The notes: generated from the sequence alone by a model not told the origin. 47,618 nt of DNA from an uncultured virus (IMG/VR IMGVR_UViG_3300028393_000024) (IMGVR_UViG_3300028393_000024), one strand, 5' to 3'. Positions 21,739-43,762 are shown, numbered from the stretch's first letter. A program made the numbers and translations.

Positions 21739-21957
21739 GTGATTGAAAGCGAATTATTGAAACTGACAAACAAGGTAGATGCTGCGCTGATAAAGTGGAT
21801 CGATCAACACAAGATAGATCCACTATCGGTGAGTGCTGTTGCCATTGCTAGAATGACACTGCTTTGTGACTCTCTTGGTATCGGTGAGGAATTTAGAAAA
21901 TTCTGTTTAGAAGTTGGAAATAAACCAGTGCCAGATCAAAATGGAGTCGTACATTGA
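21739..21957 (+). CDS. Hypothetical protein
   Basis: GGAG RBS, GTG start. Confidence 0.55.
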   Translation: MIESELLKLTNKVDAALIKWIDQHKIDPLSVSAVAIARMTLLCDSLGIGEEFRKFCLEVGNKPVPDQNGVVH

Positions 21958-22448
21958 AAGATAAGTGGATTCGTGCTTACATGGACACAGCTGAACGATT
22001 TGCTCAGTTGTCTTCAGCAAAGCGATTGCATGTTGGTGCCATTGTTGTAAAAGATGATCGTATCATTTCCATTGGATATAATGGTATGCCTTCTGGTTGG
22101 ACAAACGAATGTGAAGATAAAATTTATGTTGATTCATCGCTAGAAGAATCAATGTTATATCAGAGCAAGGTAGATGTTTATCTTGATGTGAATAAAAAAT
22201 TATATGAATTAAAATCTAAACCAGAGGTGCTTCATGCTGAAACAAATGCGATTGCGAAACTTGCTAAGTCTAACGAATCTGGTCTGGGTGCTACTATGTT
22301 TATTACCCATGCTCCATGTTTGGACTGTGCCAAACTTATCTACCAAAGTGGTATTGGCAGTGTTCTATATCGGGACTCTTATCGCAATACTGCTGGTGTC
22401 GATTTTCTTGAAACATGCAAAATAAATGTAAAAAAGATTGACATTTAA
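21954..22448 (+). CDS. dCMP deaminase
   Basis: VGAIVV, GYNG, HAETNAI, THAPCLDCAK. Confidence 0.93.
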   Translation: MKDKWIRAYMDTAERFAQLSSAKRLHVGAIVVKDDRIISIGYNGMPSGWTNECEDKIYVDSSLEESMLYQSKVDVYLDVNKKLYELKSKPEVLHAETNAIAKLAKSNESGLGATMFITHAPCLDCAKLIYQSGIGSVLYRDSYRNTAGVDFLETCKINVKKIDI

Positions 22449-22477
22449 TCAAATTGAGTGTATAATTACTATAAATA
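22438..22477 (+). promoter_or_regulatory. sigma70 promoter followed by a T4 late promoter
   Basis: TTGACA(22438)-17-TATAAT(22461); TATAAATA at 22470. Confidence 0.8.
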
Positions 22478-22523
22478 AACAAAGGACTGAAAAGTTCTTA
22501 CTGAATCAAAGGAAAAATTTTCA

Positions 22524-22640
22524 ATGTCGTTAAGATCCATACCTATGCATAAGCAGCTACCACTCTTTAGTGGATGGACATGCTCACGCACACCAGTATT
22601 GGGTTATGCGATTGAGAATGATAAGAGAGGGTTTCGGTAA
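22524..22640 (+). CDS. Leader peptide (38 aa) containing all 20 amino acids
   Basis: AAAGGA RBS; MSLRSIPMHKQLPLFSGWTCSRTPVLGYAIENDKRGFR*. Confidence 0.75.
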   Translation: MSLRSIPMHKQLPLFSGWTCSRTPVLGYAIENDKRGFR

Positions 22641-22707
22641 GTAGACTAGTCTAACAGATTATTTACCCAAACCCTCAGAGATGAAAGTCCTGAGGGTTTT
22701 TTGTTTT
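22627..22707 (+). terminator. Attenuator: mutually exclusive antiterminator and intrinsic terminator
   Basis: 22627-22644 pairs with 22659-22676; terminator stem 22669-22699 has a GAAA loop and U-tract. Confidence 0.8.
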
Positions 22708-22713
22708 GAGGTA

Positions 22714-22867
22714 TACCCTACCATCGTGTAGGGTTATCGCTTGACTTAAATGTGGATCTGAGTTATACTTGAGGTTCTGATGTGATAAGGTGCTATGATT
22801 AAAGACCCTACGAACTGTAAGGTTACTAAAAATAGTCCTTGACATTAAATAGGATCTGAGTTATACT
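22714..22867 (+). promoter_or_regulatory. Tandem sigma70 promoters, each preceded by the CCCTAC palindrome
   Basis: TTGACT(22741)-17-TATACT and TTGACA(22839)-17-TATACT; shared GGATCTGAGTTATACTTGAGGTTCTG. Confidence 0.85.
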
Positions 22868-22934
22868 TGAGGTTCTGGTTGTTTCAAAACGCAAAGCACG
22901 CTGAAAAGCAAAAAGCTGAGCAGGAAACATTAAA

Positions 22935-22965
22935 TGGGCAGAGCCCAGCCAACTGTTCTTTAAAA
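22935..22965 (+). promoter_or_regulatory. boxB-like hairpin plus boxA antitermination element
   Basis: TGGGCAGAGCCCA hairpin; TGTTCTTTAAAA at 22954 resembles rrn boxA TGCTCTTTAACA. Confidence 0.65.
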
Positions 22966-22983
22966 TTTTGCGATAGTTATTGT

Positions 22984-23057
22984 TGGGGCATAGTGAAGTG
23001 GTATCACTACGGATTTTGAATCCGTCGTTCTTGGTTCGATTCCAAGTGCCCCTGCCA
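22984..23057 (+). tRNA. tRNA-Gln(TTG)
   Basis: Cloverleaf, ACGGA-TTTTGAA-TCCGT, encoded CCA. Confidence 0.9.
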
Positions 23058-23294
23058 AACTAAAATGCATTGGTTACCAAGCCAGTAGGTATTTTATGCA
23101 GAGTTCTAAATCCCAGTGACGGCTGGGCTCTGCTAAGATACATGAAAGATGGAAACGAAACCGAAAGGTGGATACGGTGGTCACGCTGGAACAACTTGGC
23201 AAGTAATGTGGTTAACAGACAAGTCCGTGGACGGCACGGTAGGTCAGGTTCAAATCTGAGTTCTCTGTTAAACACCCAGTGTATTTTAGTTTGG
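23055..23294 (+). ncRNA. Unknown structured RNA (about 240 nt)
   Basis: 19-bp closing stem with 2 G-U pairs; internal hairpins including ACC-GAAA-GGT. Confidence 0.6.
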
Positions 23295-23299
23295 TATAT

Positions 23300-26360: not shown

Positions 26361-26915
26361 ATGAATGTTCTAGCACTAGATTCTTCAGGTTTACCAAGAG
26401 CATGGGTAAATTTTGATGACGCAATTTGTTACCATGCCAAAGACCAAGTTGTTTGGTCGCTTGGTGAAACTATCGCAACATATCGTGGTGGCTATCGTAA
26501 TGATGGGACACAATCAGTACTAGAAACTAAATCTATCATTGCCGTAAAAGGTAATACTTCTATTGAAAAGATTGGGAAAGTTGTTCTAACAAACAAAACA
26601 TTGTTCGGCAGAGACAGACACATGTGCGCTTACTGCGGTGACGTACATGGTTCTGGTCATTTGTCTAGAGATCATATTCATCCTGTATCAAAGGGTGGTT
26701 TGAACACATGGATGAATGTGGTCACTGCTTGTCTAAAGTGCAATGCCAAGAAAGGTAGCAAATCTTTAGAGAAAGCAAAAATGGAATTGATGTATATTCC
26801 ATACGAACCAAACCACTACGAAAGAATGATTCTTGAAAATAGAAATATTCTTGCTGATCAAATGGACTACTTGTTATCAGGTGTTCCTAAACACAGCAGA
26901 GTAAGATTAATGTAG
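26361..26915 (+). CDS. HNH endonuclease; stop codon inside tRNA-Cys
   Basis: RDRHMCAYCG, DHIHPVSKGG, NVVTACLKCNAKKG. Confidence 0.9.
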   Translation: MNVLALDSSGLPRAWVNFDDAICYHAKDQVVWSLGETIATYRGGYRNDGTQSVLETKSIIAVKGNTSIEKIGKVVLTNKTLFGRDRHMCAYCGDVHGSGHLSRDHIHPVSKGGLNTWMNVVTACLKCNAKKGSKSLEKAKMELMYIPYEPNHYERMILENRNILADQMDYLLSGVPKHSRVRLM

Positions 26916-28114: not shown

Positions 28115-28122
28115 TATAAATA
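28115..28122 (+). promoter_or_regulatory. T4 late promoter
   Basis: TATAAATA. Confidence 0.6.
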
Positions 28123-42683: not shown

Positions 42684-43004
42684 ATGAGAAAAATTCTTAT
42701 AAGTTTAATTACCGTAACAAGTCTATTCACTGGATCAGCTTTTGCTGATGGATATCATCACCATGGTGGTGGATACTATCAGAGTAATGGATATGGTTGG
42801 GCTGCACCATTGGTACTTGGTGGTGTCTTTGGTTATGCTATTGCTCAACAACCAAGAACAGTTATTGTTCAGCAACAGCCACCCATTATATATCAGCAAC
42901 AGCCACCTGTTGTATATCAACAGTCAGTGCCTTATGGATATCACTACGAAACTATTTTAGATGCGAACTGTAACTGTTATCGTACAGTTATGATTCCAAA
43001 CTAA
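42684..43004 (+). CDS. Secreted Gly/Gln/Pro-rich protein
   Basis: AGGAG RBS, signal peptide, QQPP repeats; promoter TTGACT-17-TATACT at 42633. Confidence 0.7.
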   Translation: MRKILISLITVTSLFTGSAFADGYHHHGGGYYQSNGYGWAAPLVLGGVFGYAIAQQPRTVIVQQQPPIIYQQQPPVVYQQSVPYGYHYETILDANCNCYRTVMIPN

Positions 43005-43009
43005 TTGTT

Positions 43010-43296
43010 GTAATTCCTTCAAAGAGAATGTGTTCTGGACGGGAGTTCGATTCTCCCCATCTCCACCAAAAGTATTTTAGCACCCAGCAGATAAGACTGG
43101 CTCTGTTTGTGAAAATAAAATACTTCTGATGGGGATGACTAGGTTTCGACAGGGCAAGATATCGGAGACGGCAACACAGTAGGCGATGACTGTCAATCAA
43201 GCAAAACCGTAAACGCAAACGACGCACAGTTCGCATTAGCAGCCTAAACACTGCTTAGGGTTTCGGTAACTTTCCTCGTAACAGAATAAGTTACCA
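43010..43296 (+). ncRNA. ssrA: Circularly permuted two-piece tmRNA
   Basis: Acceptor/T-arm ending CCA at 43068 precedes the 5' piece GGGGATG at 43131; tag ANDAQFALAA* at 43215-43247; outer ends approximate. Confidence 0.9.
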
Positions 43297-43318
43297 TTTT
43301 ATTTTAAAAAGGAATTAC

Positions 43319-43762
43319 ATGAAGAAAGTTATTTTAGTCGCAGTACTATTAGCATCTATCGGTGCTCAAGCAGTTGAACTCGGCATCAATGGAAGTCGTG
43401 ATACTGCAAACTCAGATCGTACTGGTTTAGGTATTACTATTGGTCAGAAATATGGATCATTCGGTGTTACTGCTGGTTTCGATCAATACAAAACTGGCAC
43501 TGATCTATATAAGTACAGTGTAGTTGGTTCATATGATGTGACCAATGTTGGACCAGTAACTCTTGCCGCAAAAGCAGGTGTTGCTTATTTGGATCAAAAA
43601 GGTTCAACTGATGGTTACGCAGCACTTGTTGGTGTTGGCGCATCTTATCCAATAACTAAGCAAATTGCTTTGACCGCAGACTATCGTTATCAAGCAGGTC
43701 AATCTCGTGTTAGTAATTTAGATGGTAGCACTATCGCTGCTGGTTTGAAATACTCATTCTAA
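43319..43762 (+). CDS. Outer-membrane beta-barrel protein
   Basis: Signal peptide, alternating beta strands, C-terminal GLKYSF BAM signal. Confidence 0.85.
   Translation: MKKVILVAVLLASIGAQAVELGINGSRDTANSDRTGLGITIGQKYGSFGVTAGFDQYKTGTDLYKYSVVGSYDVTNVGPVTLAAKAGVAYLDQKGSTDGYAALVGVGASYPITKQIALTADYRYQAGQSRVSNLDGSTIAAGLKYSF

Follow-up and report, generated by a model that had tools for sequence, protein, structure and literature searches.

What kind of regulator, if any, lies between the deoxycytidylate (dCMP) deaminase gene and the long transfer RNA (tRNA) array of the uncultured virus IMGVR_UViG_3300028393_000024? The window considered here is the whole stretch of 47,618 nucleotides (nt) from this virus, DNA of a lake phage that encodes ribonucleotide reductase, an ATP-dependent ligase, dCMP deaminase (21954-22448) and PhoH. 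The element in question is a short leader open reading frame (ORF) followed closely by an intrinsic terminator, both upstream of the first tRNA gene (Table 1). A first-pass annotation had interpreted this arrangement as an attenuator, in which a leader peptide containing every amino acid would gate entry into the tRNA genes, and conservation, covariation, stop-codon geometry and the rarity of such all-20 windows now lend support to that interpretation. Judging from sequence comparison, the phage tRNA array is probably headed by a transcription attenuator of the ribosome-mediated (leader-peptide) kind, one that would sense the decoding of almost all amino acids.

The first line of evidence is the composition of the leader itself. 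The 38-codon ORF and its peptide were recovered on the plus strand as the first-pass annotation had described them, with a Shine-Dalgarno-like AGGA upstream, and all 20 amino acids do fall within 26 residues (M8-D33). Such windows are clearly rare, since M8-D33 is the only one among the 30,468 stop-free 26-residue windows found in the six frames. The codon diversity claimed for the leader also holds, with 32 distinct codons among the 38, including four for Ser, four for Leu, three for Arg and three for Gly. By comparison, 38-codon windows taken from the phage's own long ORFs contain 15.8 +/- 1.7 amino-acid types (P = 0.0014 for all 20) and 24.65 +/- 2.25 distinct codons (P = 0.0013 for at least 32). 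The composition of the leader is not the product of chance. Whether the codons of the leader match the phage tRNAs was also considered as a test, and dropped because the set of 27 tRNAs reads most codons anyway. As a separate observation, the tail of the leader (22620-22640) differs by 1 nt from that of its closest relatives (...EGFGK / ...GGFGK), as a result of which the frame ends four bases earlier, at a TAA within the same helix strand (...KRGFR).

A second line of evidence is the place that the element occupies in related phages. IMG/VR and metagenome contigs were scanned by peptide motif and, separately, by a DNA pattern for the ORF tail, which together gave several hundred loci. The relatives are uncultured freshwater phage contigs, and the nearest record (G001) is identical to the window over the region. 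Among cultured phages, blastn and tblastn searches against GenBank returned only tRNA-Gln matches and one chance hit (E = 10). A complete ORF was present in 151 of 156 motif-anchored loci, the five misses being cuts at contig ends, and the tail-anchored scan contributed 26 new peptides; 30 of its matches were set aside, being either unrelated frames, copies of the hairpin on the opposite strand, or family copies that had no start or no recognised terminator in the flank. There were 111 distinct loci, of which 100 could be evaluated (five had no terminator and six had no tRNA before the contig end). In all 100, a tRNA gene on the same strand lies 3' of the terminator, usually 49-54 nt on, and it is tRNA-Gln in 98 and tRNA-Arg in 2; an upstream tRNA occurs in none of them. 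The element sits at the head of the tRNA array. What related phages keep at this position is the very combination that the earlier annotation had proposed to look for: the leader holds 19-20 amino-acid types, the antiterminator covaries, and a terminator is present.

A promoter-like site lies no more than 100 nt from the ATG in 103 of 106 related loci, and in 75 of the 100 evaluable loci no such site intervenes between the terminator and the tRNA, so that tRNA transcription from the leader promoter needs readthrough of the terminator. The first-pass annotation had cautioned that two further promoters lie past the terminator; both are present in the window, and a site of this kind turned out to be a minority trait (25 of 100 loci). 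These downstream sites, and the self-contained nature of the promoter-to-terminator unit, would suit a small gene of the ordinary sort, or a small RNA, ending at a terminator of its own; the hairpin at the stop codon would then merely stabilise the transcript, and the tRNAs would be supplied by leak-through or by other promoters. That explanation fits poorly with the three quarters of loci that have no other promoter-like site before the tRNA and with a position at the array head that does not vary in 100 loci. Nor would a mere stabiliser need to share bases with the terminator arm, which it does in every sequence folded (see below), and an ordinary small gene is, on balance, very unlikely.

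A third matter is whether the ORF is translated. It is open in 75 of 75 unique sequences, at lengths of 36-45 codons, and its insertions and deletions are multiples of three save for the one 1-nt difference in the tail of the window, while those of the spacer are of any length. The invariant Leu, Pro, Leu and Gly residues are each encoded by 2-4 synonymous codons. With respect to initiation, 103 loci have a promoter-like site, and the distance from the end of the -10 box to the ATG is 6 nt in 70 of them and 7 nt in 17, so that in these 87 a leaderless mRNA would be expected to begin with the A of the ATG. Eleven loci, the window included, have instead a 5' untranslated region (UTR) of 56-70 nt, and the long-UTR members that were inspected carry a Shine-Dalgarno-like AGGA or GGAA at the usual distance. 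The occurrence of two different initiation solutions for one frame argues that translation is needed. Taken together, this indirect but consistent evidence suggests that the ORF is translated. The opposite case, a chance and untranslated reading frame over a structured non-coding leader, could draw on the modest excess of variability at third positions (summed entropies of 22.2, 23.2 and 28.7 by codon position) and on the dN/dS (ratio of nonsynonymous to synonymous substitution rates) discussed further on. It is extremely improbable, however, given an ORF that stays open in all 75 unique sequences despite its varying length and in-frame indels, an ATG at the predicted transcript start in 87 loci, and Shine-Dalgarno-like sites in the window and in the long-UTR members inspected.

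A fourth line of evidence comes from the RNA structures formed at the end of the leader. The antiterminator pairing that had been proposed was recovered in a ViennaRNA fold of the window's transcript cut before the 3' arm of the terminator, with 17 of 18 positions paired, one C-C mismatch and two G-U pairs. The terminator with its GAAA loop is likewise present, and its hairpin has a folding energy of -14.4 kcal/mol; a simple consensus terminator scan had missed it because of a one-base bulge in the stem. Among 79 unique leader-plus-terminator sequences, terminator hairpins average -13.6 kcal/mol, and the 3' parts containing the antiterminator range from -21 to -29 kcal/mol in the 43 that were folded. 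When the whole untranslated leader was folded up to the terminator loop, the 5' arm of the terminator paired with the 3' end of the ORF in all 79 sequences, and in all 79 the antiterminator hairpin shared 5-8 bases with the terminator arm. The stop codon, again in 79 of 79, falls within the antiterminator's 5' strand, where it begins 11-21 nt in, most often at 15 or 18 nt. The geometry put forward in the first-pass annotation, by which a ribosome at the stop means termination and a ribosome held back means readthrough, therefore holds across the family.

Folding of the full-length sequences showed how evenly the two structures are matched. The minimum-energy fold contained the terminator in 41 of the 79 sequences and the antiterminator in the other 38; the two states thus differ little in energy, and the design is bistable. 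When a ribosome footprint was set at the stop codon, the minimum-energy fold was the terminator in 88 of 88, a result that reflects geometry only. With the footprint placed at every codon in turn, equilibrium folding gave mixed terminator and antiterminator states, because the two lie so close together.

The antiterminator also shows covariation, with changes on both sides in 14 of its 20 pairs. Across the alignment, 90.1% of antiterminator cells are paired, as against 82.8% after shuffling, and none of 500 shuffles reached any of the five observed measures; sliding the partner strand by 1-3 columns lowered the figure to 37-63%. The alignment was fitted with a covariance model and leans towards the structure, yet the contrast with the slid controls is clear, and so are the many double changes. 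Compensatory variants were seen, though not counted, in the terminator stems of relatives. In the 79 folded sequences there was no upstream protector (1:2) hairpin competing with the antiterminator, so that an untranslated leader should read through, unlike that of trp. The ORF does contain one small hairpin of its own (Table 1), which does not pair with the antiterminator strand. Its five pairs are kept in 32 of 32 sequences, with one-sided A-U/G-U changes only and no compensatory ones, and its Ser codon is AGT in 48 of 48. This may be a polymerase pause hairpin that is released by the ribosome.

A fifth line of evidence is the way in which amino-acid coverage has been retained across the family. 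The set used here comprised 89 distinct peptides of 36-45 residues with DNA-verified context, of which 56 contain 20 amino-acid types and 33 contain 19. Several rare residues (Cys, Tyr, Gln, His and Val) have shifted position and yet been retained. For instance, Cys comes after Trp in 56 peptides and ahead of it in 27, with 2 peptides having it on both sides and 4 on neither side. Tyr is spread over six alignment columns with a mean of 1.00 copy and is missing from none. His, Trp and Asp likewise average about one copy each. When the helix-encoded tail is excluded, 69 of 79 sequences lose no type at all. One divergent member whose core has been replaced still has 20 types, 34 distinct codons of 39, a leaderless start and the same switch. 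More generally, the ORFs of the family average 32 distinct codons of about 40, compared with 25.5 +/- 2.3 in the phage's own genes. At one locus (L283), Leu takes the place of the otherwise invariant Trp, leaving 19 types, which could be a natural variant or an assembly error.

The retention of coverage was also measured against a relabelling null that allows for shared ancestry, in that the partition of sequences and the majority residue were kept fixed in each column and only the derived states were relabelled; the test depends on how MAFFT aligned these short peptides and on the starts, for which homology and promoter spacing were the guides. Over the 89 peptides, the observed mean of 19.63 types compares with 18.55 +/- 0.18 under the null (0 of 2000 relabellings), and all 89 peptides have at least 19 types, where the null reached a maximum of 73. 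A subset of 63 peptides gave the same outcome under three different nulls. As a control, 11 blocks of 45 columns from the neighbouring dCMP deaminase of the same phages gave z values of -1.5 to +0.3, which indicates that the test does not itself create the signal. Amino-acid coverage is kept non-randomly in this family. This result bears directly on the idea that the element is a generic sensor of translation or of its coupling to transcription, responding to ribosome supply, host shut-off or drugs, with the amino-acid diversity of the leader being incidental. The switch geometry would indeed work for any delay, ribosome loading is bound to the 5' end when the start is leaderless, and Val can evidently be dispensed with in 28 of the 89 peptides. 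Incidental diversity is nonetheless hard to square with coverage kept through relocated rare residues far beyond the relabelled nulls, with the flat deaminase control, or with the excess of distinct codons over the phage's own genes, and a generic sensor is considered unlikely.

Another conceivable explanation is an arrest peptide, whose conserved H-L-P-L-x-S-G-W-x-C-S-R ... D would stall the ribosome on a ligand or factor in the manner of TnaC or SpeFL, with the stall flipping the switch. Nine columns are invariant across 43 peptides, and the core is strongly conserved as amino acids, with synonymous changes in L-P-L and G. The codons of W-T-C-S-R, however, are conserved at their third positions too, which points to a constraint on RNA or codons rather than on the peptide, and members with a diverged core retain both the switch and all 20 types. 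Stalling on a ligand would also leave the relocation of Cys, Tyr, Gln and His unexplained, and there is no matching protein family, either in PHROGs for the window peptide or in Pfam up to E = 1 for five family members. An arrest peptide is accordingly rather improbable.

How might an attenuator of almost all amino acids operate? Transcription would start at the sigma-70-type promoter and the short ORF would be translated at once, from a leaderless mRNA in most relatives and from a Shine-Dalgarno-like site in the window. If no ribosome reached the tail of the ORF in time, the last codons and the stop would pair with the stretch just before the terminator, and the resulting antiterminator of about 20 base pairs would take up part of the terminator's 5' arm and let the polymerase enter the tRNA genes. 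A ribosome that did arrive at the tail or stop in time would mask the 5' strand of the antiterminator, the terminator would fold some 30 nt further on, and transcription would end. This would amount to a kinetic race like that in trp, except that both the sensor and the output differ. Since the leader samples 19-20 amino-acid types, mostly in single copies, through about 32 different codons, slow decoding almost anywhere along it would raise transcription of the tRNAs, producing a feedback between decoding capacity and tRNA supply. We infer that the position of the ribosome decides termination, that the switch is kinetic, and that a shortage of tRNAs or amino acids is its natural signal. The stronger proposal is that the leader serves as a "decoding meter", an ORF raced against RNA polymerase, by which the phage would transcribe more of its complete tRNA set whenever almost any charged tRNA runs short, and for this the chances seem about even. 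The shortage itself could arise from a codon mismatch with the host, from starvation or from tRNA-cleaving host immunity.

Several observations weigh against this reading of the element as an attenuator that senses decoding in general. Classical attenuators, such as the trp, his and leu leaders, use runs of codons, whereas the codons here are single and sensitivity to mild starvation may be low. An attenuator's leader codons are expected to be cognate to the product it regulates, and a modified form of that relation does hold here, since the output comprises tRNAs for all 20 amino acids and the leader has 19-20 types without codon runs; even so, four of the window's leader codons (TCG, TCC, TCA and CGG) have no cognate phage tRNA under standard wobble rules applied to the ARAGORN anticodons. 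Coverage is not universal, as Val is absent from 28 of the 89 peptides, Cys from 4 and Trp from 1, and among database proteins that come with no DNA context and have unverified starts there are a 33-residue member with 17 types and several that lack Cys. With respect to selection, the median dN/dS is only 0.62, the core K/Q-H-L-P-L-x-S-G-W-x-C-S-R is conserved beyond what a need for one of each residue would call for, and seven codons (ATA, TCC, CAT, AGT, TGC, TCA and CGC) are nearly invariant at all three positions. This last pattern suggests a constraint at the codon or RNA level. In the window, moreover, the full-length equilibrium fold favours the terminator at most ribosome positions, so that the switch must be kinetic, and the two promoter-like sites behind the terminator, of a kind found in a quarter of loci, mean that the attenuator controls only part of the tRNA input. 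Finally, no such ORF lies within 400 nt upstream of the array in 11 loci from other phage groups with arrays near the deaminase, where the array opens with tRNA-Met in 9 and tRNA-Arg in 2 (tRNA-Met-first arrays near dCMP deaminase occur at L017, L020, L026, L036, L065, L072, L078 and L080). The leader is thus not universal among phages with tRNA arrays.

The coordinates of the leader, the switch and the features around them are collected in Table 1.

Table 1. Features of the attenuator region and tRNA array, in window coordinates.
Feature	Position	Strand	Remarks
Sigma-70-type promoter TTGACA-17-TATAAT	22438-22466	+	12/12 consensus matches; feeds the leader; -35 overlaps the dCMP deaminase stop
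TATAAATA motif, putative look-alike of a T4-type late promoter	22470-22477	+	
Shine-Dalgarno-like AGGA	22510-22513	+	10 nt 5' of the ATG
Leader ORF, 38 codons + TAA	22524-22640	+	All 20 amino acids; 32 distinct codons
Small hairpin in the ORF, CCACT-CTTT-AGTGG	22560-22573	+	Codons P-L-F-S-G
Antiterminator 5' strand	22627-22644	+	Last four codons, TAA (22638-22640) and four further bases
Antiterminator 3' strand	22659-22676	+	Final 8 bases (22669-22676) double as the start of the terminator 5' arm
Intrinsic terminator, hairpin then T-tract TTTTTTGTTTT	22669-22707	+	Hairpin 22669-22699; G+C core 22672-22696; GAAA loop 22683-22686
First promoter-like site past the terminator	22741-22769	+	10/12 matches; bypasses the attenuator in this phage
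Second promoter-like site past the terminator	22839-22867	+	11/12 matches
Array of 27 tRNA genes, all 20 amino acids	22984-28291	+	tRNA-Gln first; ARAGORN

Upstream of the leader, the sigma-70 promoter that had been annotated is present with a full match to consensus. The label of late promoter given to the TATAAATA motif did not hold up, since the motif is not enriched in the window (2 copies, with 3.3 expected by chance). Its sole other copy, at 28115-28122 (+), lies 9 nt 5' of tRNA-Thr (28131), and TAAATA-like motifs were seen by eye upstream of the leader in relatives. Directly 3' of the terminator there is a hairpin with a CATCGT-like loop, which occurs in the window at 22708-22740 and at 22803-22830, ahead of each inserted promoter, and which in relatives follows the TAAATA-like motif upstream of the leader. 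Its stems covary by eye, from CCCTAC/GTAGGG in the window to TAGC/GCTA, GGC/GCC and GGG/CCC in relatives, and it may be a processing site or part of a promoter module.

Searches of known RNA families and of RNA contigs were also made for this region. No Rfam family matched 22300-23100 up to E = 10 beyond tRNA and chance-level hits, and the T-box covariance model went unmatched there up to E = 10 and over the whole window at gathering scores. In four lake or freshwater metatranscriptome runs, no exact-match RNA contig covers the leader, a search of contigs only that has no bearing on expression or termination; one low-depth RNA contig of a relative does cover it. Exact-match RNA contigs of two runs begin at 22780 and 22798, a weak hint that the first downstream promoter-like site is in use.

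Within the tRNA array, the coverage of all 20 amino acids claimed by the first-pass annotation was upheld, whereas its count of 28 was not, as ARAGORN found 27 tRNAs plus one distant transfer-messenger RNA (tmRNA). The latter lies at 42944-43338 (+) (42976-43338 according to ARAGORN) and matches the betaproteobacterial model at 169.8 bits, as well as the permuted tmRNA model. It is a hint that the host is a betaproteobacterium and that the phage's investment in translation is broad. The array also contains an HNH endonuclease ORF (26361-26915, +). The 242-nt spacer between tRNA-Gln and tRNA-Glu (23058-23299, +) has an unusually favourable folding energy of -79.1 kcal/mol (z -4.1, 0 of 200 shuffles) and no Rfam match, and by eye its 3' part resembles a tRNA T-arm. 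In two freshwater metatranscriptome runs, RNA contigs, some of them from relatives, cover the spacer to a summed depth of up to about 900, and it may be an unknown stable RNA.

The control of bacterial tRNA genes is known to take place at their promoters and through processing, and leader-peptide attenuation has been tied to amino-acid and resistance operons. If the decoding-meter reading is correct, tRNA genes would for the first time join the known targets of leader-peptide attenuators, and an attenuator built to sense all amino acids together would likewise be without known precedent. Phages carrying it would gauge the decoding capacity of the host and tune their own tRNA supply by feedback, which would also supply a reason for placing tRNA arrays behind a terminator. 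As set out in one recent report, tRNAs are targets of bacterial immunity and phage tRNAs a counter-measure (PMC12409363), and the element would connect to both. Such a leader could also offer a compact natural part for reporting global translation capacity. Lastly, a rule of "one of each amino acid, position free" would be an unusual kind of selection on a peptide, acting on its composition and not on its fold.

Comparison with known systems begins with trpL, hisL, leuL, thrL and pheL of E. coli and Salmonella, the leader-peptide attenuators of amino-acid operons. Like these, the phage element has a promoter and a short ORF, apparently translated; the stop codon falls at or within the 5' strand of an antiterminator, one strand of which is also used by an intrinsic terminator, and in both systems a ribosome at the end of the ORF would favour termination and one held back would favour readthrough. 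The phage leader differs in having no codon runs for a single amino acid, with about one codon for each of 19-20 amino acids instead, and in regulating tRNAs where the others regulate biosynthetic enzymes. In addition, it has no protector hairpin, so that an untranslated leader would read through instead of super-attenuating, and the element is phage-borne and, in most members, leaderless. A closer parallel in one respect is provided by the ilvGMEDA and ilvBN leaders, multivalent attenuators with Leu, Val and Ile codons, in which several amino acids are likewise sensed by one leader. Those leaders, however, sense three related amino acids through runs, whereas the phage leader would sense nearly all twenty, mostly once each.

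Other known systems resemble the element in mechanism or in purpose. In vmlR (PMC9226507) and yxjB (PMC6851288) of Bacillus subtilis, a terminator is switched off when ribosomes stall on a short leader ORF, and RNA polymerase pausing helps to synchronise ribosome and polymerase, according to the two reports. As described there, these leaders answer ribosome-targeting drugs and control resistance genes, with neither amino-acid coverage nor a tRNA output. The T-box riboswitches share the broad purpose of coupling the charging status of tRNA to terminator readthrough; a T-box, however, binds one uncharged tRNA directly and needs no translation. A full-text literature search, judged by titles and the openings of abstracts, turned up neither an all-amino-acid leader nor a case of tRNA genes controlled by leader-peptide attenuation. 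Ribosome-mediated attenuation as such is well known, and what would be new here is the logic of the sensor and the class of genes that it would regulate.

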